A DNA stretch of 64,000 bases, taken from contig JAHBZM010000001.1 in assembly GCA_019635435.1 (NCBI GenBank), forward strand, positions 2,128,587-2,192,586, written 5' to 3'. This stretch comes from Ramlibacter sp. (GTDB lineage: Bacteria; Pseudomonadota; Gammaproteobacteria; Burkholderiales; Burkholderiaceae_C). Within the stretch, counting starts at the first letter, position 1. Every line of letters begins with the position of its first letter. Shown here piece by piece: positions 5,501 through 34,930 of the stretch. The position numbers and the translations under genes were made by a program. The notes below the pieces were generated by a model. The model was not told the origin of the DNA and did not search any database. It saw only the letters and a program-made list of their open reading frames with translations.

Positions 5501-6823
5501 ATGAAACCGATCCAAGTAGGCCTGTTGGGCATTGGCACCGTGGGCAGTGGCACCTTCAATGTGCTCAAGCGCAACCAGGAAGAAATCCGCCGCCGCGCCG
5601 GCCGCGGCATCGAGATCACCATGGTGGCCGACCTGGACACCGCGCGCGCCCAGGCCGTGGTGGGCGACCAGGCCCGGGTGGTCAACGACGCGCGCGCCGT
5701 CATTGCCAACCCTGACATCGACATCGTCATCGAGCTGATCGGCGGCTACGGCATTGCGCGGGCCCTGGTCATGGAGGCCATCGAGGCCGGCAAGCATGTG
5801 GTCACCGCCAACAAGGCGCTGCTGGCCGTGCATGGCACCGAGATTTTTGCCGCCGCGCACCGCAAGGGCGTGATGGTGGCGTTCGAGGCCGCGGTGGCCG
5901 GCGGCATTCCCATCATCAAGGCGCTGCGCGAGGGTCTCACGGCCAACAGCATCGAGTGGATCGCCGGCATCATCAACGGCACCACCAACTTCATCCTGTC
6001 CGAGATGCGCGACAAGGGGCTGGACTTTGGCGTGGTGCTCAAGGAAGCGCAGCGCCTGGGCTATGCCGAGGCCGACCCCACCTTCGACATCGAAGGCGTC
6101 GATGCCGCGCACAAGGTCACGCTCATGAGCGCCATTGCCTTCGGCATCCCGGTGCAGTTTGACAAGGCTTACGTCGAGGGCATCACCCAGCTTGGCGCCG
6201 CCGACATCAAGTACGCCGAGCAGCTGGGTTACCGCATCAAGCTGCTGGGCATCACCAAGCGCGTGGCCACGGGCATTGAACTGCGCGTGCACCCCAGCCT
6301 GGTGCCCACCAAGCGGCTGATCGCCAATGTGGAAGGGGCCATGAACGCCGTGGTGGTGCAGGGCGATGCCGTGGGCACCACGCTGTACTACGGCAAGGGC
6401 GCGGGCTCCGAGCCCACGGCCAGCGCCGTGATTGCCGACCTGGTGGACATCACCCGCCTGCACACGGCCGACGCCGCGCAGCGCGTGCCGCACCTGGCCT
6501 TCCAGCCCGATGCCATGAGCGACGCGCCTGTGCTGCCCATGAGCGAGGTGGTGACCAGCTACTATCTGCGCCTGCGCGTGGCCGACGAGGCCGGCGTGCT
6601 GGCCAAGGTCACGGGCATCCTGGCCGGCGCGGGCATCAGCATCGACGCCGTGCTGCAGCGCGAGGCCGACGAGGTGAGCCAGGCCGGCGAGAACCAGACC
6701 GACCTGATCATCCTCACGCACGACACGCGCGAGGGCACCATGAACGAGGCGCTCGCGCAGATGCAGGCCCTGCCCACCGTGGTGGCGCCGATCACGCGCA
6801 TCCGCAAGGAAGAGCTGGCGTAA
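5501..6823 (+). CDS. hom: homoserine dehydrogenase
   Basis: N-terminal Rossmann motif GxGxVG and a C-terminal ACT domain. Sits in the conserved alaA-hom-thrC arrangement. Confidence 0.9.
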   Translation: MKPIQVGLLGIGTVGSGTFNVLKRNQEEIRRRAGRGIEITMVADLDTARAQAVVGDQARVVNDARAVIANPDIDIVIELIGGYGIARALVMEAIEAGKHVVTANKALLAVHGTEIFAAAHRKGVMVAFEAAVAGGIPIIKALREGLTANSIEWIAGIINGTTNFILSEMRDKGLDFGVVLKEAQRLGYAEADPTFDIEGVDAAHKVTLMSAIAFGIPVQFDKAYVEGITQLGAADIKYAEQLGYRIKLLGITKRVATGIELRVHPSLVPTKRLIANVEGAMNAVVVQGDAVGTTLYYGKGAGSEPTASAVIADLVDITRLHTADAAQRVPHLAFQPDAMSDAPVLPMSEVVTSYYLRLRVADEAGVLAKVTGILAGAGISIDAVLQREADEVSQAGENQTDLIILTHDTREGTMNEALAQMQALPTVVAPITRIRKEELA

Positions 6824-28684: not shown

Positions 28685-29065
28685 TCAAGTTTCGAGCGGT
28701 GGTTTGGCGGCCTCTTTCAAGCAACGCGTCATGTCCCGCTTGCGCTTCGCATTGGCTGCGCGCCAGGCGCTTCTGGCTAGTTCCACAAATCGATCCTCGG
28801 CAATATCAGGCGCGCGGGCTGTGCCCCGGTCCTGATCGAGCCAGCCCGTCGGTTGGCGGGCGTGGTGTTCGATCTGCCTGGCCAGCTTGTCGCTGATGGG
28901 GCGGGCACTCTTGATCTGGCTCCACATGCTGGGCGAGATTTCCAGCAGGGCGGCAAATGTCTGGTCCAGGCCCTTGGGTGCGTCGCCGGCCGCAATGCGC
29001 TCCTGCAAAAAGGTCTGGTAGAGCGCGACCACATTGGCGCGGCGGGTAACGGTGGTTGGGGGCAC
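28685..29065 (-). CDS. XRE-family (Cro/CI-like) helix-turn-helix regulator
   Basis: HTH-like segment FAALLEISPSMWSQIKSARPISDKLARQIEHHARQPTGWLD. GTG start. Divergent from the small-ORF unit and the tRNA array. Confidence 0.5.
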   Translation of the reverse strand: MPPTTVTRRANVVALYQTFLQERIAAGDAPKGLDQTFAALLEISPSMWSQIKSARPISDKLARQIEHHARQPTGWLDQDRGTARAPDIAEDRFVELARSAWRAANAKRKRDMTRCLKEAAKPPLET

Positions 29066-29110
29066 GTGTGGAAAAGCTGCAACAGCGGAAAAATTAATTG
29101 TCTCCGGTGT

Positions 29111-29145
29111 TGACCGGATCGTAAAGACTCTTTACAGTTCGCCCA
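29111..29145 (+). promoter_or_regulatory. sigma70-like promoter (TTGACC-N17-TACAGT) in the AT-rich stretch
   Basis: Lies 45 nt upstream of the small ORF's RBS. Confidence 0.35.
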
Positions 29146-29191
29146 CTGCCTGAAACGGCATGACCATTTTTATCAACACAAGGAACCGATC

Positions 29192-29323
29192 GTGATCACC
29201 AAGCCCGCATTCACAACCAGCTTGACCCATTTGGGTCGGCGTGCGTTGGTATGCGCCACGTTCATCCAGCCATGGATGAATGGCCGCGAGGATCGCCCTT
29301 TTCCGGGAATGGAAGACGTGTAG
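29192..29323 (+). CDS. small ORF (43 aa) with a strong RBS, followed by an intrinsic terminator
   Basis: AAGGAA RBS 6 nt before the GTG. Peptide MITKPAFTTSLTHLGRRALVCATFIQPWMNGREDRPFPGMEDV. The terminator lies about 30 nt downstream. No homology recognised. Confidence 0.35.
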   Translation: MITKPAFTTSLTHLGRRALVCATFIQPWMNGREDRPFPGMEDV

Positions 29324-29352
29324 ACGCTTCTTCCATCAGCTCTTTCGAGAGG

Positions 29353-29392
29353 CCCGGATTCCACAAGGATCCGGGCCTTTTTTTTCGCTCCT
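29353..29392 (+). terminator. intrinsic terminator (GGCCCGGAT-N8-ATCCGGGCC followed by T8)
   Basis: A perfect 9-bp GC-rich stem is immediately followed by TTTTTTTT. Confidence 0.75.
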
Positions 29393-29700
29393 TTTGGGGG
29401 TGCTTGCAGTGATCGCGCTGCAAGTCGCTGCGTCATGGCGCGGCGAATTGATCTTTAACAAGTTGCCGCGGGGCAGCGCCGGTACTGGCCGGACGCGAGC
29501 TCCGCAGAAAGAAGTGGATGCCGGTCTCATGCCGGTCATCTGCTCCATTTCGGGTGTGCCTATGCACCACCGTCGCCGCGCTGCCCTGGAGTGGGTGCGA
29601 CGGGATGTGCAGGGTGTCGCTCACCGTTGTGCAGCGAGGCTCACAGGCGGCGTCATGCCGTCTGCTCGCGCGTAGACACAGCCGAAATGGAGAAGCATTC

Positions 29701-29778
29701 GCCCCGTTAGCCCAGTGGAATCAGAGCACTGGCCTACGAACCCAGGGGTCGCACGTTCGAATCGTGCATGGGGCACCA
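29701..29778 (+). tRNA. tRNA-Arg(ACG)-like, with C12-A23 and C31-C39 stem mismatches; CCA encoded
   Basis: Hand-folded cloverleaf. Acceptor GCCCCGT/ATGGGGC, T-arm GCACG-TTCGAAT-CGTGC, anticodon loop CTACGAA identical to that of E. coli tRNA-Arg(ACG), discriminator A. Confidence 0.65.
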
Positions 29779-29785
29779 GATCAAA

Positions 29786-29863
29786 GTCGTGTTCGTCTAG
29801 ATGGCCAAGGACACCTGAATTTCAATCAGGAGATCGCGGGTTCGACTCCCGCACACGACGCCA
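29786..29863 (+). tRNA. tRNA-Glu(TTC); CCA encoded
   Basis: Lies 7 nt after the previous tRNA. Glu-type D-arm GTCTAGATGGCCAAGGAC, anticodon loop ATTTCAA, T-arm GCGGG-TTCGACT-CCCGC, discriminator G. Confidence 0.7.
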
Positions 29864-29954
29864 TCAAGACCAGAGCGAGCCCTCAGTAATGAGAGCTTGC
29901 GGAAACCGGTCGCAAAGATTGGGCGGCACCGGAACCCGTCACCGGAAATTCAGA

Positions 29955-30030
29955 GGTCCGTTAGCTCAGTGGCCAGAGTGGTTCCCTGTCGAGGAACAAG
30001 TCGCGGGTTCGACTCCCGCACGGACCGCCA
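29955..30030 (+). tRNA. tRNA-Asp(GTC); CCA encoded
   Basis: Acceptor GGTCCGT/ACGGACC, D-arm GCTC-AGTGGCCA-GAGT, anticodon stem GTTCC/GGAAC with loop CTGTCGA (G37), T-arm GCGGG-TTCGACT-CCCGC. Confidence 0.7.
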
Positions 30031-30075
30031 ATTCCGAGAACATCAACCAACCCGTTAACTTCCAAGGAGGACGAC

Positions 30076-30249
30076 ATGAAACGGCAACACACCGGCGAAC
30101 AGCCGCAACGCCAACCGGTCGTCGCCTTGGCGAGGAACCGAATGGCTTGGGCCAGGCTCTGGCGCGCCACGAAGCAGTGGCGCCGCCGCATGGTCGAAGC
30201 GGACGATGCCGACCTGGCACAGCGCGTTCGCCTGAGTGGCGAATGGTGA
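30076..30249 (+). CDS. small basic ORF (57 aa) with a strong Shine-Dalgarno, just upstream of the HNH gene
   Basis: AAGGAGG sits 6 nt before the ATG. The peptide MKRQHTGEQPQRQPVVALARNRMAWARLWRATKQWRRRMVEADDADLAQRVRLSGEW is Arg/Trp-rich. It falls below the ORF-track length cut-off. Confidence 0.3.
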   Translation: MKRQHTGEQPQRQPVVALARNRMAWARLWRATKQWRRRMVEADDADLAQRVRLSGEW

Positions 30250-30304
30250 GAGCAATGGTCCACCGTTTGACGAAAAAAAATTTTAGCAACGAAAGGAAAG
30301 CATC

Positions 30305-30868
30305 ATGCAAGCGCATGTCCTGCAACTCGATATCCAGGGAACCCCTCAGGCCTGGATTTCGCTGGAACAGGCCGCGCTGCATTACGCCACCGACGGCGTG
30401 GCGTGGGAAGACGGAGCAGGCCCTCTGGCCACCCTGCGTGGCGGCTGGAGCGTGGCGCGGGGTGTGCAGTCCACGCTGGCGGTGCACCCCATCATCGCCC
30501 TGCGCGGCTCGCCCCGACGCAACCTGTTTGATGTGGTGCCTGGCTTCAGCAAGTCCAAGCTGCTGCGGCGCGACCGTTTCACCTGCGCGTACTGCGCGCG
30601 GGTGTTTGCCGAGCGCGACCTGCAGTGCGAGCACATCCTGCCCGCATCGCGGGGGGGTGCGTGGTCGTGGATGAACCTGGTCACGGCCTGCGCCGCGTGC
30701 AATGGCCGCAAGGCCGACCGCACGCCCGAGGAGGCGGGCATGCCCCTGGTGTACCTGCCCTATGTGCCGACCCGCTTTGAGGATTTTCTTCTGGTGGGCC
30801 GCAACATCCGGGCCGACGTGCACCTGTGGCTGGCCTCTCGCCTGCCCAAAGGATCGCGACTGAACTGA
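30305..30868 (+). CDS. HNH endonuclease
   Basis: HNH motif CAYCARVF...CEHILPASRGG...NLVTACAACNGRK (paired CxxC and a catalytic His). 187 aa. Confidence 0.8.
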   Translation: MQAHVLQLDIQGTPQAWISLEQAALHYATDGVAWEDGAGPLATLRGGWSVARGVQSTLAVHPIIALRGSPRRNLFDVVPGFSKSKLLRRDRFTCAYCARVFAERDLQCEHILPASRGGAWSWMNLVTACAACNGRKADRTPEEAGMPLVYLPYVPTRFEDFLLVGRNIRADVHLWLASRLPKGSRLN

Positions 30869-31022
30869 GGCTGTCCACAGTCAGAGTTCAGCCCACACAT
30901 CTTCCGCAGAAGGCGAACGCTCACAGGAGCGGGGTTGGGGCAAAGGCCCGCCCCGCCGGTGTCATTGCCCGGGCCTGGCCCGTGGGCGGGTGACATGCCG
31001 CACCGCCGGAAACGGTTGATAC

Positions 31023-31076
31023 GGGTGATGTGGGGATACCTCCTCGACGAGCCGGGTTCGACTCCCGGATCACCCA
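31023..31076 (+). ncRNA. truncated tRNA-like element: 7-bp acceptor stem plus canonical T-arm, with D and anticodon arms replaced by one short hairpin (54 nt)
   Basis: GGGTGAT...ATCACCC acceptor pairing; T-arm CCGGG-TTCGACT-CCCGG; discriminator A; no CCA. It abuts the next tRNA, 3 nt away. It could be a tRNA pseudogene remnant or a tRNA-mimic RNA. Confidence 0.4.
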
Positions 31077-31079
31077 CCC

Positions 31080-31152
31080 CATTGGATAGCTCAGTCGGGT
31101 AGAGCAGTCTTTGCATAAAAGACCGGTCACGGGTTCGACTCCCGTTCCAAAG
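31080..31152 (+). tRNA. tRNA-Met/Ile2-like (anticodon CAT) with G33, an A2-A71 mismatch and no encoded CCA
   Basis: Canonical D-arm TAGCTCAGTCGGGTAGAGCA. Anticodon stem GTCTT/AAGAC with loop TGCATAA. T-arm ACGGG-TTCGACT-CCCGT. Confidence 0.55.
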
Positions 31153-31160
31153 CAAACCAG

Positions 31161-31231
31161 GGTCGAAAGACCCGCGCCGCTGCAGTCGCGGGGCAAGCCT
31201 GATCCGACGTTGCCGCCCCGAGCGGCAACGC
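31161..31231 (+). other. three consecutive GC-rich hairpins (GGGTC-GAAA-GACCC; CCGC-N7-GCGG; CGTTGCCGC-N5-GCGGCAACG) immediately 3' of the tRNA array
   Basis: Perfect stems with no U-tract. Possibly RNA processing or stability elements. Confidence 0.4.
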
Positions 31232-31430
31232 AGGACCGGACGAGCCCTGCAACTGCCCTCGGTGGCGGCCGGCGCTGAAACCGCCCGGTCCGCGCCCACG
31301 GCCAGCACAGGCTGCCTTGCCGGGTGGCCTGAGCGCACCGTGACGCCCGGCCCTGTGCCTTCAGCGTTTGCAGCCCCCGTTGCCGCGGCGCACCCCTTCA
31401 TTCACACGCATCCAACACAAGGAGAACACC

Positions 31431-32570
31431 ATGGAATTCAAGCGTGTCAGCATCAAGAAAAACGAGCGCGGCATCCTGCTGCGCAATGGTGACTTTGACC
31501 GCGTGCTGCGGCCCGGCCGTCACCTGCTGTTCAGCGGTCTGGACACGCTGCGCGTGGAAAACTTCGCGCTCGACCAACCCGCATTCGCCCACAGTCTGGC
31601 GGACTACCTCATGGCCAGGGAAGCCGGGGTGGTCGCGGCCGAGTTCGTGCGCGTCGAGCTGGGCGAGACCCAAGCCGGCCTGCGTTCCGAGAACGGCGTG
31701 TTGGTGGAAGTGCTTGCTCCCACCACGCGGCGCCTGTACTGGAAGGGGCTGGTGGACGTGCAGGTGGAGGTGATCGACCTGGTCGCCTCGCCCGAGCTCG
31801 CCCCTGGCACGGTGGCCCGCCTGACGCAGACCCAGCTGCGCCAACGTGGCGTGACCGGCCTGGCCGGTGTGCTGCAGGTGCAGGTGCCCGAACACTCGGT
31901 GGGCGTGCTGACCGTTGACGGCAAGGTGGAACGCCTGCTGGTGCCCGGTGCGTACGCGTTCTGGAAGTTCAACCGCAATGTGGCGGTGGATCTAGTGGAC
32001 ATGCGCCTGCAGTCGCTGGAAGTCACGGGCCAGGAAATCCTGACCCGCGACAAAGTCAGCCTGCGGCTGAACCTGGCGGCCACCTGGCGCTACACCGATG
32101 TGCTCAAGGCCTTCACCCAGCTGCAAAAGCCCGCGGAACACCTGTACCGCGAGCTGCAGTTCGGGCTGCGCGCCGCTGTGGGCACCCGCACGCTGGATGA
32201 GCTGCTGGAGAACAAGACGGTCATCGACGAAGTGGTGACCACCTATGTGCGTGGCCGCCTGTCCGCGTGGGGGCTGGCGCTGGACGGCGTGGGTGTGAAA
32301 GACATCGTGCTGCCCGGCGAGATGAAAACCATCCTGGCCCAGGTGGTCGAGGCGGGCAAGTCGGCGGAAGCCAACGTGATCCGCCGGCGCGAAGAAACCG
32401 CCGCCACGCGTTCCCTGCTCAACACGGCCAAGGTCATGGAGGACAACCCCGTGGCCCTGCGCCTGAAGGAGCTGGAAACGCTGGAGCGTGTGGCCGAGCG
32501 CATCGACAAGATCTCCGTCTTCGGCGGTCTGGACCAGGTGCTCAACGGGCTAGTGAAGCTCAAGCCCTAG
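31431..32570 (+). CDS. SPFH/band-7 (slipin-like) domain protein, no predicted TM segment
   Basis: AAGGAG RBS. SPFH core from about residue 170 (VDLVDMRLQSLEV...). C-terminal coiled-coil-like region. Confidence 0.7.
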   Translation: MEFKRVSIKKNERGILLRNGDFDRVLRPGRHLLFSGLDTLRVENFALDQPAFAHSLADYLMAREAGVVAAEFVRVELGETQAGLRSENGVLVEVLAPTTRRLYWKGLVDVQVEVIDLVASPELAPGTVARLTQTQLRQRGVTGLAGVLQVQVPEHSVGVLTVDGKVERLLVPGAYAFWKFNRNVAVDLVDMRLQSLEVTGQEILTRDKVSLRLNLAATWRYTDVLKAFTQLQKPAEHLYRELQFGLRAAVGTRTLDELLENKTVIDEVVTTYVRGRLSAWGLALDGVGVKDIVLPGEMKTILAQVVEAGKSAEANVIRRREETAATRSLLNTAKVMEDNPVALRLKELETLERVAERIDKISVFGGLDQVLNGLVKLKP

Positions 32571-32621
32571 CAACCCTCCGGGGGCGGCCTTTGGTCGCCC
32601 CCGTTCTTTGGAAACAACATC

Positions 32622-33632
32622 ATGGAAACACAAGAGAAGAAAAAGAAAGTCAAACAGCCGCCCGTGCTGTTTGCCAGGACGCAGGCCGTGATGGCCCAGC
32701 TTGGAGATTGTCTGGGCGGCCCTGTGGTGAGCTACTGGAACAACCCGCGAGGCTCGGTGTGCCAGTCAGACGTGGTGGCGCTGTATGACGTGCTGGCACG
32801 TCTGGGCCGGCACGACACCATGTACCTGTTCATCAAGTCCGACGGGGGCAGCGGCCAGGTGTCGCTGCGCCTGGTCAACCTGCTGCGCCAACACTGCCGC
32901 CAGCTCGTGGCGCTGGTGCCGCTGGAGTGCGCATCGGCCGCGACGATGATTGCGCTGGGCGCGGACCGCATCCTGATGGGGCCTACCGCCTATCTGACGG
33001 CGGTGGACACCTCGCTGAACCATGCGCTGTCGCCTGTGGACCGTGACAACGACCGTGTGAACGTCAGCCTGGATGAACTCAACCGGGTAATCCGGCTGTG
33101 GCGCGACCAGCAGGGCGAGCAGGCCGAGAACGCCTACAAGTCGCTGTTCCAATACGTGCACCCGCTGGTGATCGGCGCCGTTGATCGCGCCGAATCGCTG
33201 TCCATCATGCTGTGCCGCGAGTTGCTGGCCAACCACATCGCCGATGAGGCAGTGGCCGAGCAGATAGCGGCGACGCTGAATGCCAAATACCCGTCGCACA
33301 GCTACCCCATCCTGCTGGATGAGGCCGTCAAGATCGGCCTGAAAGCCGAGCGCATGCCGCAAGAGGTCAACACCCTGTTGCTGCAACTGAACGGCTACTA
33401 CAGTGAAATGGGGCAGAAGGCGACGACCGACTTTGACGAGATCAGGGCCCATGGCAATGAGATCGTCAACATCTGGGAGGCGTCGGGCACGCAGGTGTTC
33501 TACCAACAGGACAAGGACTGGTTCTACCGCGCCGAAGAACGGCGCTGGATCACCATGAACGACAACAGCGGATGGCGCCGCATTGAACGAAACGGCTCAC
33601 GCATCAAGCGCACCTTGCTGCACGTGGCCTGA
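32622..33632 (+). CDS. ClpP/crotonase-fold serine protease (SDH/NfeD/S49-like)
   Basis: Motifs KSDGGSG and ECASAATMIALGAD are typical of Clp-fold serine proteases. This class partners with SPFH proteins. Confidence 0.55.
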   Translation: METQEKKKKVKQPPVLFARTQAVMAQLGDCLGGPVVSYWNNPRGSVCQSDVVALYDVLARLGRHDTMYLFIKSDGGSGQVSLRLVNLLRQHCRQLVALVPLECASAATMIALGADRILMGPTAYLTAVDTSLNHALSPVDRDNDRVNVSLDELNRVIRLWRDQQGEQAENAYKSLFQYVHPLVIGAVDRAESLSIMLCRELLANHIADEAVAEQIAATLNAKYPSHSYPILLDEAVKIGLKAERMPQEVNTLLLQLNGYYSEMGQKATTDFDEIRAHGNEIVNIWEASGTQVFYQQDKDWFYRAEERRWITMNDNSGWRRIERNGSRIKRTLLHVA

Positions 33633-33664
33633 GCGGCCTGCCATGGCGGGCCAAAAGGAAAAAC

Positions 33665-34885
33665 ATGAAAGAAACCAACTACATCGAAGAGCAAACCCCC
33701 GGCGGCGTGCCCATCAAGATGTGGACGCGCGGCGTGCCGGTGGAAGACGAGGCCCGACGCCAGCTCAGCAACGCGGCGCGGCTGCCCATTGTGTTCAGGC
33801 ACGTGGCCGCCATGCCTGATGTGCACTTTGGCATCGGGGCCACTGTGGGCTCGGTCATTCCCACCTTCCGCGCCATCATCCCCGCGGCGGTGGGGGTGGA
33901 CATTGGCTGCGGCATGATCGCCAGCAAAACCACGCTGACGGCTGAAGACCTGCCCGACAACCTGGGGCCGCTGCGCTCGGCCATCGAGCGAGCCGTGCCG
34001 CATGGCCGCGCACCCGGTGCGCGCGACCCCGGCGCCTGGCACAAGGTGCCAGGGTCGGTGGACACCGCCTGGGCCCAACTGGAGCCCGAGTTCACCGAGC
34101 TTTGCCGTGACTACCCCAAGCTGCGCAAGACCAACAACCACAACCACCTGGGCACCCTGGGCACGGGTAACCACTTCATTGAGGTCTGCCTGGACGAGCA
34201 GGGCGCGGTTTGGTTCATGCTGCACTCGGGCTCACGCGGCGTGGGCAATGCCATTGGCACCATGTTCATCGAACTGGCCAGGCAGGACGCCATGCGCAAC
34301 AACGTGAACCTGCCTGACCGTGACCTGGCGTACTTTGAAGAAGGCTCGCGCTACTTTGGCGACTACGTGCGGGCCGTGGGCTGGGGCCAGAAGTTTGCGC
34401 GCCTGAACCGTGAGGTGATGATGCGCCGCGTGATCGAGGCGGCCAAGACCGTGATCCGCAAGAACTTCCAGAGCCACATCGAGGCGGTCAACTGCCACCA
34501 CAACTATGTGCAACGGGAACGCCACTTTGGGGAAGATGTTTACGTGACCCGCAAGGGCGCCGTGAGCGCCCAGGCGGGTGAACTGGGCATCATCCCCGGC
34601 AGCATGGGCGCGCGCAGCTACATCGTGCGTGGCAAGGGCAACCCCGAAAGCTTCGCCTCGTGTTCGCACGGGGCAGGGCGCACCATGAGCCGTGGCGAAG
34701 CCAAGCGCCGGTTCACGCTGGCCGACCACCGCGCCGCCACCGAAGGCGTTGAATGCCGCAAGGACAAGGACGTGATTGACGAAACGCCCGCGGCCTACAA
34801 GGACATTGACGCCGTGATGGCGGCGCAGCAAGACCTGGTGGACGTGGTGCACACGCTCAAGCAGGTGGTGTGCGTGAAAGGGTGA
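33665..34885 (+). CDS. rtcB: RNA-splicing ligase RtcB (3'-phosphate/5'-hydroxyl RNA ligase)
   Basis: 406 aa. Conserved RtcB metal and GTP-binding His residues (DVHFG, GNHF, HNH region). Confidence 0.85.
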   Translation: MKETNYIEEQTPGGVPIKMWTRGVPVEDEARRQLSNAARLPIVFRHVAAMPDVHFGIGATVGSVIPTFRAIIPAAVGVDIGCGMIASKTTLTAEDLPDNLGPLRSAIERAVPHGRAPGARDPGAWHKVPGSVDTAWAQLEPEFTELCRDYPKLRKTNNHNHLGTLGTGNHFIEVCLDEQGAVWFMLHSGSRGVGNAIGTMFIELARQDAMRNNVNLPDRDLAYFEEGSRYFGDYVRAVGWGQKFARLNREVMMRRVIEAAKTVIRKNFQSHIEAVNCHHNYVQRERHFGEDVYVTRKGAVSAQAGELGIIPGSMGARSYIVRGKGNPESFASCSHGAGRTMSRGEAKRRFTLADHRAATEGVECRKDKDVIDETPAAYKDIDAVMAAQQDLVDVVHTLKQVVCVKG

Positions 34886-34902
34886 AACGCATCGCCCATC
34901 GA

Positions 34903-34930
34903 GCCGACCCGAAAGGGTCGGCTTTTTTTT
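34903..34930 (+). terminator. intrinsic terminator after rtcB (GCCGACCC-GAAA-GGGTCGGC followed by T8)
   Basis: Perfect 8-bp stem, GNRA tetraloop and a TTTTTTTT run. Confidence 0.8.

Follow-up and report, generated by a model that had tools for sequence, protein, structure and literature searches.

Bacterial toxins and anti-phage systems are now recognised to use tRNA cleavage as one of their main weapons, and to our knowledge how chromosomes shield their own tRNA pool is poorly understood. The abstract of Burroughs and Aravind (2016, NAR 44:8525) reportedly describes SPFH/Band-7 modules with a novel tRNA-like molecule as RNA-repair cofactors. These predicted systems place an SPFH/Band-7 gene by RtcB with a tRNA-like ncRNA alongside, for which a scaffold or cofactor role in RNA repair is proposed. 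The same arrangement is present at the locus described here, a cassette within 64,000 nucleotides of Ramlibacter sp. DNA (the window), while a link to a tRNA array, an HNH gene and a repressor may be absent from that description.

The HNH gene is a hallmark of mobile tRNA array units (PMC5966550, PMC8421152), and in one Mycobacterium array group an XRE regulator and an HNH gene go with about 87% of the arrays (Morgado and Vicente 2018, PMC5966550). L-arrays lie next to an HNH gene, and their expression is regulated together with that of rtcB under translational stress (Santamaria-Gomez et al. 2021, PMC8421152); an array that is silent unless translation is stressed is known for Anabaena only (PMC8421152). 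The cassette resembles L-arrays in its same-strand, tightly packed supernumerary tRNAs, in the HNH gene and small regulator at its edges, and in its patchy distribution, differing flanks, plasmid copies and rtcB neighbourhood or co-regulation. It differs in having only three tRNAs where an L-array has tens on the same strand, in being physically fused to an SPFH-RtcB operon, and in that its family carries two conserved non-tRNA structured RNAs, elements A and B.

The Anabaena TrcR repressor regulon includes a tRNA array, HNH genes, rtcB and a slipin gene (PMC10272220, Table 1), and is induced by translation inhibitors (PMC10272220, PMC8421152). The cassette likewise has a tRNA array, an HNH gene, rtcB, a slipin-family gene and one repressor, which is putative here. 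The Anabaena parts are scattered on the chromosome and a megaplasmid, whereas those of Ramlibacter lie in a single cassette. TrcR is a ribbon-helix-helix protein; the cassette regulator is apparently not its homologue, and is phage-repressor-like by PHROG match only.

YrlA RNAs are tRNA-like Y RNAs encoded in rtcBA operons, and a scaffold or competitive-inhibitor role has been proposed for them (PMC4201824, PMC7790460). The cassette RNA resembles YrlA in having a tRNA-like domain (T arm, D arm and acceptor-like stem) in an RtcB operon, but where YrlA has one module and a Ro-binding stem, the cassette RNA is a tandem of two tRNA-like modules. Some phage tRNAs carry mutations in the anticodon loop that let them evade anticodon nucleases (van den Berg et al. 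2023, PMC10264068). Like the array tRNAs described here, they are extra copies with loops that depart from the housekeeping consensus, and some phages have RtcB alongside. The cassette is chromosomal, however, and the deviating loops in the window are only those of Asp (G37, A38) and Glu (A32, A38).

Anatomy and distribution of the cassette

The interval 29701-31152 belongs to the RNA-gene half of a cassette that is portable, spans about 6.3 kb (28,685-34,924) and joins two known kinds of unit, a tRNA array unit (L-array) and an SPFH/tRNA-like/RtcB repair module (Table 1). The array module consists, in order, of a divergent small repressor, leader RNA A, tRNA-Arg, tRNA-Glu, RNA B, tRNA-Asp and HNH. 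The repair module follows with the tandem tRNA-like RNA, a soluble SPFH/slipin protein, a ClpP/NfeD-like protease and the RtcB ligase. Judged from this gene content and by analogy with the systems above, the cassette probably provides tRNA back-up and repair after tRNA damage. PADLOC assigned no cassette protein to a described defence system; the HNH protein is generically similar to PtuB (1.6e-9) and the rest were unmatched.

The cassette is widespread: its gene order is common to 80 Burkholderiales loci, and at least 77 related loci of this order have the tandem RNA upstream of SPFH and RtcB. Carrier genera include Acidovorax, Roseateles, Piscinibacter, Caenimonas and Burkholderia. The SPFH-RtcB adjacency is also present on the plasmid-classified 3.2-Mb replicon plas1 of B. 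stagnalis and in three other Burkholderia species. The genes around the Ramlibacter cassette encode transporters, a two-component system, a cupin, a thioesterase and TspO. None of the flanking genes is shared with the 80 related loci, which bears out the inserted block of the preliminary description.

Array size in the related loci ranges from 0 to 20 tRNAs, and 22 of the 58 well-covered loci have no array. A mobilizable Variovorax plasmid carries a 27-tRNA array bracketed by the same repressor, leader RNA A and HNH. Since up to 20 tRNAs accompany this repressor, leader RNA and HNH in relatives, and 27 on the plasmid, the window holds the remnant of an L-array. Its repair module is intact, and its array part is down to three tRNAs with tRNA-Arg damaged. 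The variable flanks and the copy on the mobilizable plasmid mark horizontal spread of the tRNA array unit.

Table 1. Features of the Ramlibacter cassette, in order along the window
Feature	Position	Strand	Support or remark
Small repressor-like protein, 126 aa, divergent from array	28685..29065	-	PHROG 12107
Element A, array leader RNA (~140 nt)	29547..29691	+	RNAalifold, model R2
tRNA-Arg(ACG), CCA encoded	29701..29778	+	ARAGORN; Rfam 50.0 bits; two private lesions
tRNA-Glu(UUC), CCA encoded	29786..29863	+	ARAGORN; Rfam 59.5 bits; stems fully paired
Element B, structured RNA between Glu and Asp	29866..29951	+	RNAalifold, conserved core
tRNA-Asp(GUC), CCA encoded	29955..30030	+	ARAGORN; Rfam 66.3 bits; stems fully paired
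Insertion private to the window, between Asp and HNH (274 nt)	30031..30304	+	57-aa Arg-rich ORF inside
HNH endonuclease, 187 aa	30305..30868	+	Pfam HNH_5 4.7e-15
Module 1, tandem tRNA-like RNA	31023..31079	+	Covariation; mascRNA model 29.6 bits, sub-threshold
Module 2, tandem tRNA-like RNA (ARAGORN Met-CAT)	31080..31153	+	Model R1, covariation
Small conserved GNRA hairpin GGUCGAAAGACC, 3' of module 2	31161..31172	+	Helix 10 of model
SPFH/Band-7 (slipin), 379 aa	31431..32570	+	Pfam Band_7 3.1e-29
ClpP-fold SDH/NfeD-like serine protease, 336 aa	32622..33632	+	Pfam SDH_protease 5.2e-11; NCBIfam Clp_like_SDH
RtcB RNA ligase, 406 aa, full length	33665..34885	+	Pfam RtcB 6.8e-128
Intrinsic terminator-like hairpin, U tract after it	34901..34924	+	Operon end

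The array tRNA genes and their structured neighbours

ARAGORN calls the four genes of the preliminary description (Arg-ACG, Glu-TTC, Asp-GTC and Met-CAT), all on the plus strand, and all four, including the CAT call at 42.6 bits, exceed the gathering score (29) of the Rfam tRNA model RF00005, with E-values of 4e-7 to 1e-13, far past chance. By score and fold, Arg-ACG, Glu-UUC and Asp-GUC are genuine tRNA genes (50.0-66.3 bits), which we assume to be supernumerary or spare copies; the CAT element, with its four-pair acceptor and hypervariable "anticodon", is not (see below). The four had been described as a tight tandem with 7-nt and 3-nt spacers. The 7 nt between Arg and Glu are as stated, but 91 nt separate Glu from Asp and 1049 nt separate Asp from the CAT element, and the 3 nt are the gap between a previously unlisted mini tRNA-like element (31023-31075, with ACCC after it) and the CAT element. 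The 91-nt gap and the 150 nt 5' of Arg hold conserved structured RNAs.

The stems of tRNA-Glu and tRNA-Asp are fully paired, and both have U33 and a purine at position 37, while tRNA-Arg has the two non-pairs already recorded, C12-A23 and C31-C39. Among 23 tRNA-Arg orthologues the broken 12-23 pair and the C-C at 31-39 occur in this window alone, and they look like damage or decay, not adaptation. The Arg anticodon loop, CUACGAA, is the same as that of E. coli tRNA-Arg. Decay may extend further, in that the array module could be a non-functional L-array remnant with selection acting only on the tRNA-like/SPFH/RtcB module. The three tRNAs left, the loss of tRNA-Gly(GCC), which is the usual first array gene, the two stem lesions of tRNA-Arg, the private insertion that parts Asp from HNH and the many well-covered loci with no array are in keeping with such a relic. 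We nevertheless consider it rather unlikely, as Glu and Asp have no broken pairs at 59.5 and 66.3 bits, tRNA-Glu keeps E. coli-like acceptor (G1-C72, U2-A71) and D-arm features, and the HNH protein, the repressor and both structured RNAs are full-length, element A at 103.6 bits.

The anticodon loops also depart from the housekeeping pattern. The tRNA-Glu has A32/A38 compared to C32/C38 in E. coli, and positions 37 and 38 of the tRNA-Asp loop (CUGUCGA) are G and A, against A37 and C38 in the housekeeping tRNA-Asp of E. coli. The unusual 37/38 identities reported for both genes are therefore real for Asp and for Glu A38, whereas Glu A37 is normal. The 25 array orthologues of tRNA-Asp show compensatory changes in 15 of 21 pairs and A37 in none, and among 26 distinct array tRNA-Asp genes A37 occurs in a single divergent one. 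Across the distinct array tRNAs of the relatives U33 is absent in 33 of 258 (13%) and a pyrimidine stands at position 37 in 18 of 258, with substitutions that include C33 in Gly, Glu and His. The array family thus shows recurrent anticodon-loop changes, yet its cloverleaf stems are kept by compensatory changes, a pattern that fits selection on loop identity of the kind suggested for nuclease-evading phage tRNAs (PMC10264068). Why U33 and A37 should be lost recurrently in tRNAs whose structure is otherwise kept is a puzzle.

These loop changes, together with the near-loss of A37 in Asp genes whose stems co-vary, are what might be expected if the four genes were phage-derived tRNAs resistant to colicin D, zymocin-type, colicin E5 and VapC-type nucleases, as first put forward. 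Loop-mutated phage tRNAs that evade anticodon nucleases have been described (PMC10264068), and one predicted viral contig has an element B homologue beside tRNAs. At the level of the family (Asp A37, U33) the nuclease-escape idea retains some support. For the four genes themselves it is very unlikely, since the CAT gene is not a tRNA, the Arg mismatches are private to the window and the Arg loop is that of E. coli. A prophage or phage-type tRNA array is very unlikely, as the flanks have no phage structural, integrase or replication genes and phage genomes share nothing with the cassette beyond RtcB; the SPFH gene has no relative in IMG/VR, which also speaks against a phage source.

Element A lies directly 5' of tRNA-Arg and is predicted to form a long closing stem with at least three internal helices. 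RNAalifold gives 34 predicted pairs with compensatory changes at 15; 97.4% of cells are paired compared to 31-49% in slid controls, and the observed values were reached by none of 500 shuffles. Model R2 scores 103.6 bits here, has one plus-strand match in each of 48 loci, and also matches immediately 5' of the first tRNA in the Variovorax plasmid array. Element B consists of a variable hairpin and a near-invariant core (GGAAAyCGGyCGCAAmGATwGGGCGGCnyCGGAACCCGTnACCGr) forming two small hairpins. The core is found in more than 30 loci, one copy each and always within the array, and RNAalifold predicts 15 pairs, 7 with compensatory changes, among them C-G to U-A in 11 sequences. Neither element has an Rfam 15 family, and no description was found in the related literature searched. 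With the tandem tRNA-like RNA, the cassette gives three well-supported structured RNA candidates that have no Rfam model.

The repressor-like protein matches the PHROG 12107 'transcriptional repressor' (2.8e-8), with no match in Pfam or NCBIfam, and is the putative regulator of the cassette. In 36 of 80 loci a homologue is likewise divergent and in the same place, and another is encoded on Variovorax plasmid 3 (46% identity). The HNH gene had been correctly placed with the array, and its motifs (CxxC...EH...N...CxxC-N) are intact. The HNH protein shares 72% identity with the one at the end of the Variovorax plasmid array. The repressor is present in 29 of 35 HNH-positive loci compared to 5 of 23 HNH-negative ones, and array tRNAs in 32 of 35 compared to 4 of 23. 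Within the insertion between tRNA-Asp and HNH lies an ORF for 57 aa (30076-30249) that is rich in arginine and has a strong ribosome-binding site; the insertion has no blastn or tblastn match in any of the 80 loci, and no protein family match.

Alternatively, the cassette could be a selfish mobile element, in which HNH homing would spread the array, and the tRNAs and structured RNAs would be cargo or targets that bring no host benefit. No other array-linked genes are as widespread as HNH genes, which have been proposed as array spreaders (PMC8421152, PMC5966550), the cassette has differing genomic contexts and a copy on a mobilizable plasmid, and the near-invariant core of element B could be a DNA recognition site. 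However, the HNH protein is 62-85% identical across loci and keeps a fixed position between the array and the tRNA-like RNA across genera, so its conservation appears to be that of a stable component, unlike that of sporadic homing genes. The structure of the array tRNAs is kept through compensatory changes, and in Anabaena induction of the HNH gene goes along with that of the array and rtcB (PMC8421152, PMC10272220). Selfish spread is therefore very unlikely.

The tandem tRNA-like RNA and the proposed repair module

A conserved tandem tRNA-like RNA (31023-31172) has the "Met/Ile2 CAT" gene as its second half, which is non-decoding. Identity as tRNA-Met or tRNA-Ile2 was rejected, since there are four conserved acceptor pairs and the anticodon varies among orthologues. 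The G33 and the A2-A71 mismatch noted earlier are both present, with no CCA after the element, and these oddities appear to arise because it belongs to a different RNA family.

Module 1 is built of an acceptor-like stem of 7 bp, a linker of 10 nt in which a GG is conserved, a hairpin of 4 bp and a T arm, and ends in an encoded ACCA in relatives and ACCC in this window. Its helix 1 has compensatory changes at 7 of 7 pairs, with 95.3% of cells paired. In module 2 the D arm is invariant and the anticodon arm hypervariable, and there are also a T arm and an acceptor of 4 bp (UGGA/UCCA); a fifth acceptor pair forms in only 38.6% of 72 sequences. Its "anticodon" takes 18 different triplets in 47 copies and is replaced by a GNRA-type tetraloop in 19 of 66 copies, and ARAGORN gives the orthologues 20 different 'anticodons'. 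The many odd "tRNA" calls with random anticodons 5' of slipin genes are thus tRNA mimics, and the calls a gene-caller artefact. The GNRA hairpin that follows (helix 10) is 99.5% paired, with covariation at 2 of 3 pairs.

Over the whole tandem RNA 95.7% of cells are paired compared to about 40% in slid controls, 29 of 38 pairs are doubly changed, and none of 500 shuffles reached the observed values. Model R1 scores 136.6 bits across 31023-31171 and has one match per locus in 77 loci, 5' of the SPFH gene, at 73-155 bits. The RNA is also present in Burkholderia stagnalis, where the array is absent. Identity as YrlA or a bacterial Y RNA is not supported, as the Rfam YrlA model scores 22.4 bits in the window, under its gathering score of 69, and no cassette protein has an Rsr/TROVE (Ro60) domain.

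The SPFH protein has no transmembrane segment (maximum Kyte-Doolittle 19-aa window 1.09), and its relatives number at least 526 in GTDB species genomes and more than 7,700 proteins at E<=1e-5. RtcB also matches the PHROG tRNA splicing ligase (9.8e-143), and in most loci it lies downstream of the SPFH gene on the same strand.

The tandem element is always on the strand of the SPFH gene, 250-370 nt before its start, and no intrinsic terminator was found after the element. This arrangement raises the possibility, which we hold to be rather unlikely, that the element is a cis-acting leader of the SPFH-RtcB mRNA and not a free RNA. RNase P/RNase Z processing, or cleavage and religation, would then set the expression of the downstream genes, or else the element would sense tRNA-directed nuclease or ligase activity. 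The cassette lacks an RtcR-type sensor and therefore needs another sensing route, which would suit such a leader. Against this, most loci show no conservation across the 250 nt that separate the element from the SPFH start, which leaves room for a separate promoter. The encoded ACCA after module 1 is like a mature tRNA end, the GNRA hairpin after module 2 would be stabilising, and the related YrlA RNAs are stable free RNAs (PMC4201824).

Proposed working of the cassette

For tRNA back-up and repair, the reading that we favour, the following steps are suggested by gene content and analogy. The operon would be held silent by the repressor and induced by damage to translation or to the tRNA pool, whether by the anticodon nucleases of toxins, colicins and defence systems or by translation-blocking antibiotics. 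Replacement tRNAs would then be supplied, some of which, in the wider family, have loop substitutions that should alter nuclease recognition. RtcB would reseal cleaved tRNAs with 2',3'-cyclic-phosphate and 5'-OH ends, and the tRNA-like RNA on an SPFH assembly may act as scaffold, cofactor or decoy, a role that parallels that of Y RNA and Ro60 in rsr-yrlA-rtcBA operons. The cassette would unite spare tRNAs, a ligase, a tRNA mimic and a scaffold, all suspected countermeasures, under one putative repressor. The idea of tRNA back-up plus repair has so far been assembled from scattered Anabaena genes, and as the cassette is present in many cultivable Burkholderiales, it is directly testable.

A more specific version, which we regard as speculative and on balance unlikely, is that the cassette is a self-contained countermeasure to tRNA-targeting toxins that uses three undescribed RNA families together with escape-variant array tRNAs. 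The tandem RNA would load onto a soluble SPFH cage, vault-like or Ro/Y-like, and the loaded cage would present or collect nicked tRNAs for RtcB. Alternatively, the hypervariable anticodon loop might be a diversifying bait or sensor for anticodon nucleases. RNAs A and B would be new RNAs that act in processing or regulation and are confined to mobile tRNA arrays, and the loop substitutions of the array (Asp nearly lacking A37; C33 in Gly, Glu and His) would have been selected for escape. The SDH/NfeD-like protease is optional, being present in about 15 of 80 loci, and since only about one fifth of the loci have it, it does not appear to be essential to the mechanism.

A cassette of two separable modules

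The tRNA genes lie in a compact cassette of protein genes and structured RNAs (see the table). Outside 28.65-34.93 kb the window holds ordinary chromosomal genes, encoding a KdpD/E-like two-component system, Kup, a cupin, a thioesterase, TspO, an FG-GAP protein, ABC and MFS transporters and CreA, and no integrase or phage genes were found in that part of the window.

Features of the cassette, in window coordinates
Feature	Position	Strand	Remarks
Repressor-like gene	28685-29065		126 aa; upstream, divergent
Element A	29547-29691	+	about 140 nt, directly 5' of tRNA-Arg; long closing stem, conserved in sequence
tRNA-Arg(ACG)	29701-29778	+	ARAGORN; Rfam tRNA model 50.0 bits
tRNA-Glu(UUC)	29786-29863	+	ARAGORN; Rfam tRNA model 59.5 bits
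Element B	29866-29951	+	fills the 91-nt Glu-Asp gap; variable hairpin and nearly invariant core of about 45 nt
tRNA-Asp(GUC)	29955-30030	+	ARAGORN; Rfam tRNA model 66.3 bits
HNH gene	30305-30868		motif intact
Tandem tRNA-like RNA	31023-31172
Mini tRNA-like structure	31023-31075
'tRNA-Met(CAT)' (CAT element, module 2 of the tandem RNA)	31080-31153	+	ARAGORN; Rfam tRNA model 42.6 bits
SPFH/Band-7 (slipin) protein	31431-32570	+	downstream of CAT element
ClpP-fold SDH/NfeD-like protease	32622-33632		downstream of CAT element
RtcB RNA ligase	33665-34885		full-length; downstream of CAT element
Terminator	34901-34924		good; after RtcB

Relatives of the SPFH protein number at least 526 in GTDB species genomes, and the comparisons use the best 80 loci, all of which are from Burkholderiales. 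A recurring order is seen with tblastn: [tRNAs] - HNH - about 500 nt - SPFH - (protease, about 15 loci) - RtcB, with the number of array tRNAs ranging from 0 to 20. Array tRNAs are present in 32 and the repressor in 29 of the 35 HNH-positive loci, as against 4 and 5 of the 23 HNH-negative loci; array, HNH gene and repressor travel together. None of the window's flanking genes lies beside the cassette in the other related loci.

On a mobilizable Variovorax plasmid the array module stands alone, without SPFH or RtcB, and consists of a repressor of 46% identity, the same leader RNA, 27 tRNAs and an HNH protein of 72% identity. Conversely, the 3.2-Mb replicon plas1 of Burkholderia stagnalis, classified as a plasmid, has only the module of tRNA-like RNA, SPFH and RtcB. 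Since each module is found alone, the cassette is a fusion of two separable modules, and these comparisons show its anatomy, its conservation and the separability of its parts.

The tandem arrangement of the tRNA genes had been likened to phage tRNA arrays, and a phage origin was rejected: phage genomes match RtcB only, and no SPFH relatives were found in IMG/VR. The window is not a prophage, nor is it a YrlA/Rsr system or a defence system listed by PADLOC, which returned nothing specific for the cassette proteins.

The tandem tRNA-like RNA

ARAGORN makes four plus-strand calls in the interval, Arg-ACG, Glu-UUC, Asp-GUC and Met-CAT, as in the preliminary description; the gathering score of the Rfam tRNA model is 29 bits. 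The oddities noted for the CAT element are also there, G33 being present and the 2-71 mismatch being marked in the Rfam tRNA model alignment. What that description gives as a 3-nt spacer actually separates the CAT element from a mini tRNA-like structure that is not on its list, and the two are parts of one RNA.

In nearly every related locus an ARAGORN 'tRNA' call lies 250-370 nt before the start of SPFH, and these calls carry 20 different anticodons, some of two or four bases. In the alignment of this tandem RNA, module 1 has an acceptor-like stem of 6-7 bp, a linker of 10 nt in which a GG is invariant, a 4-bp hairpin in which a GNRA loop is common, and then a canonical T arm; after it ACCA is encoded, the window having ACCC. 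Module 2 opens with UGGA and UA, then come a D arm that does not vary (GCUC...GAGC) and an anticodon arm that does; CUGUC, the T arm and UCCA complete it, and a small GNRA hairpin lies 3' of it.

Single-sequence folding of the tandem RNA was uninformative (z = -1.45), and covariation was used instead. MAFFT misaligned the variable stems, so that RNAalifold recovered the T and D arms only, and its alignment was replaced by anchor-based parsing and covariance-model alignment. The resulting model, R1, gives one match per locus at 73-155 bits (136.6 bits in the window) and separates the tandem element cleanly from true tRNA pairs, which reach at most 78 bits. In the 73-sequence model alignment 95.7% of the pair cells are standard, versus 37-45% with slid partners, and 29 of the 38 pairs show double-sided changes (0/500 shuffles as high). 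Covariation is seen in every pair of the module-1 stem (seven) and of the module-2 anticodon stem (five).

By the same comparison the CAT element is not a tRNA. Its acceptor has just four conserved pairs, and 38.6% of the sequences form the next pair tested. Among unpaired positions the three of the 'anticodon' vary most (1.5-1.85 bits), with 18 kinds of triplet in 47 copies, and in 19 of 66 sequences the module-2 loop is a GNRA-type tetraloop. With an 'anticodon' that is hypervariable or replaced by a tetraloop, G33 and A2-A71 are therefore features of a tRNA mimic, and not those of a modified Met/Ile2 tRNA. Searches of Rfam 15 at gathering score and at E<=10 put tRNA alone above threshold in the interval; mascRNA (29.6 bits) and YrlA (22.4 bits) were rejected as identities, both being below threshold.

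Array tRNAs and their accompanying RNAs

The Arg, Glu and Asp genes were compared with their array orthologues, and their loops with those of E. coli tRNAs of verified sequence, which stand in for the housekeeping tRNAs of the host. The tight spacing described for the array stands for the Arg-Glu gap (7 nt) but not for the Glu-Asp gap (91 nt).

The window's tRNA-Asp has no broken pair, and 25 array orthologues show compensatory changes at 15 of 21 pairs. None of the 25 has A37; the 26 distinct array Asp genes divide at position 37 into 15 with U, 9 with G (the window among them), 1 with C and 1, a divergent copy, with A. The loop of E. coli housekeeping tRNA-Asp is CUGUCAC, in a sequence verified at 100% identity. 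In one array tRNA-Asp clade (loci L021, L027, L035, L048, L055 and L056) the T loop GGGATCGAGG or GGGGTCGGG replaces GGTTCGA, and this clade is therefore without the usual T54-Psi55-C56. The tRNA-Glu likewise has no broken pair, shares its acceptor start and D arm with E. coli tRNA-Glu, and has A32/A38 versus C32/C38 in E. coli.

In tRNA-Arg the reported C12-A23 and C31-C39 mismatches are both marked in the Rfam model alignment. The window copy is the only one among 23 orthologues with a broken 12-23 pair or a C-C at 31-39, and its loop is the same as that of E. coli; the mismatches are private lesions. The related loci L001 (4235-4311) and L018 (2083-2159) each have a 77-nt 'tRNA-Leu(CAG)' without the long variable arm usual in bacterial tRNA-Leu; a reading of these as anticodon-switched Arg homologues was rejected, as their likeness to the window's tRNA-Arg is confined to the acceptor ends.

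Nearly all tRNAs have U33 and a purine at position 37. Of the 258 distinct array tRNAs, 33 are without U33 (mostly having C33), concentrated in Gly-GCC (8/10), Glu-UUC, His-GUG and Ile-GAU; a pyrimidine stands at 37 in 18, for the most part U37 in Asp-GUC. Examples of non-canonical loops are L003:2140-2215 (Gly-GCC) and L021:4472-4546 (Glu-UUC). The anticodon stems are well formed in those of these tRNAs that were inspected, and CCA is encoded by 231 of the 258. Recurrent loss of U33 and of purine 37 with maintained stems argues for anticodon-loop identity being under selection in the array tRNAs. The earlier proposal that these are spare tRNAs escaping anticodon nucleases thus keeps some ground in the loop changes of the array family but loses it for the CAT element, a mimic, and for tRNA-Arg with its private lesions. 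Elsewhere in the window, ARAGORN calls a 96-nt 'tRNA-Ile(GAT)' at 6392-6487 (-) within a high-GC3 ORF, 5501-6823 (+); Rfam at gathering threshold has no tRNA match there, and the call is probably a false positive.

Element A has 34 pairs, 15 of them compensatory, and its cells are paired in 97.4% of cases versus 31-49% in slid controls (0/500 shuffles as high). R2, its covariance model, has a single plus-strand match in each of 48 loci (103.6 bits in the window), and matches directly 5' of the first tRNA in the Variovorax plasmid array. Element A is the leader of this tRNA array family. Twelve IMG/VR pattern matches to it are due to chance, none being confirmed by R2, and the weak tblastn matches that suggested a protein gene at ORF 29280-29675 reflect its DNA conservation. 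A strong terminator-like hairpin (29347-29381, +; a 15-bp stem, then T8) separates the repressor gene from element A, and the array promoter should therefore lie in 29382-29546. The sole sigma-70-like match, 29110-29138, is upstream of this hairpin.

Element B occurs once per array in more than 30 loci. Its core has two small hairpins, one with a C-G to U-A switch in 11 sequences, and is a candidate RNA motif or DNA recognition site. A homologue adjoins tRNAs on a 93-kb predicted viral contig (L083, 7086-7130). No family in Rfam 15 matches element A or element B. The 274-nt Asp-HNH stretch that follows (30031-30304) is unique to the window, without counterpart in the 80 related loci, and holds an ORF (30076-30249, +) for an arginine-rich protein of 57 aa, for which no family match was found; the ribosome-binding site of this ORF, AAGGAGG, is strong.

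Proposed working and relation to known systems

The anatomy of the cassette is solid, and its function is a proposal based on gene content and analogy. The repressor may silence the operon, which would be induced by damage to translation or to tRNAs. Spare tRNAs could then refill the tRNA pool, RtcB may reseal tRNAs cut by metal-independent RNases, and the tRNA-like RNA may be a scaffold, cofactor or decoy that works together with the SPFH protein. No transmembrane segment is predicted in the SPFH/slipin protein, and a region of about 150 aa at its N terminus precedes the Pfam Band_7 match; for the SPFH superfamily, a soluble assembly is unusual.

The concept of such a cassette has been published in part already. 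The abstract of Burroughs and Aravind (2016) reportedly predicts an SPFH/Band-7 module with 'a novel tRNA-like molecule' in RNA-repair operons. Literature searches combining SPFH or Band-7 with tRNA-like and RtcB found no paper. Descriptions were not found of the two modules physically fused as one cassette across Burkholderiales, of a two-module tRNA-like RNA or a hypervariable or dispensable anticodon loop, of elements A and B, or of systematic loss of U33 and A37 in array tRNAs.

Array units of tRNAs that come with an HNH gene and a small regulator have been described (PMC5966550, PMC8421152). In Anabaena, translation inhibitors co-induce the L-array, a tRNA array unit, with an HNH gene and rtcB (PMC8421152), and the TrcR regulon includes the array, HNH genes, rtcB and a slipin gene (PMC10272220). 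The tRNA-like YrlA RNA of Salmonella is encoded with Rsr and RtcB, and has been proposed to act as a competitive inhibitor (PMC7790460, PMC4201824).

The HNH gene interleaved with the array is real. The best similarity of its domain in the defence library is to PtuB (1.6e-9), an HNH nuclease that, together with PtuA, reportedly acts on tRNA-Tyr in a retron system (PMC11555353). The array HNH protein might act on RNA or tRNA instead of in homing.
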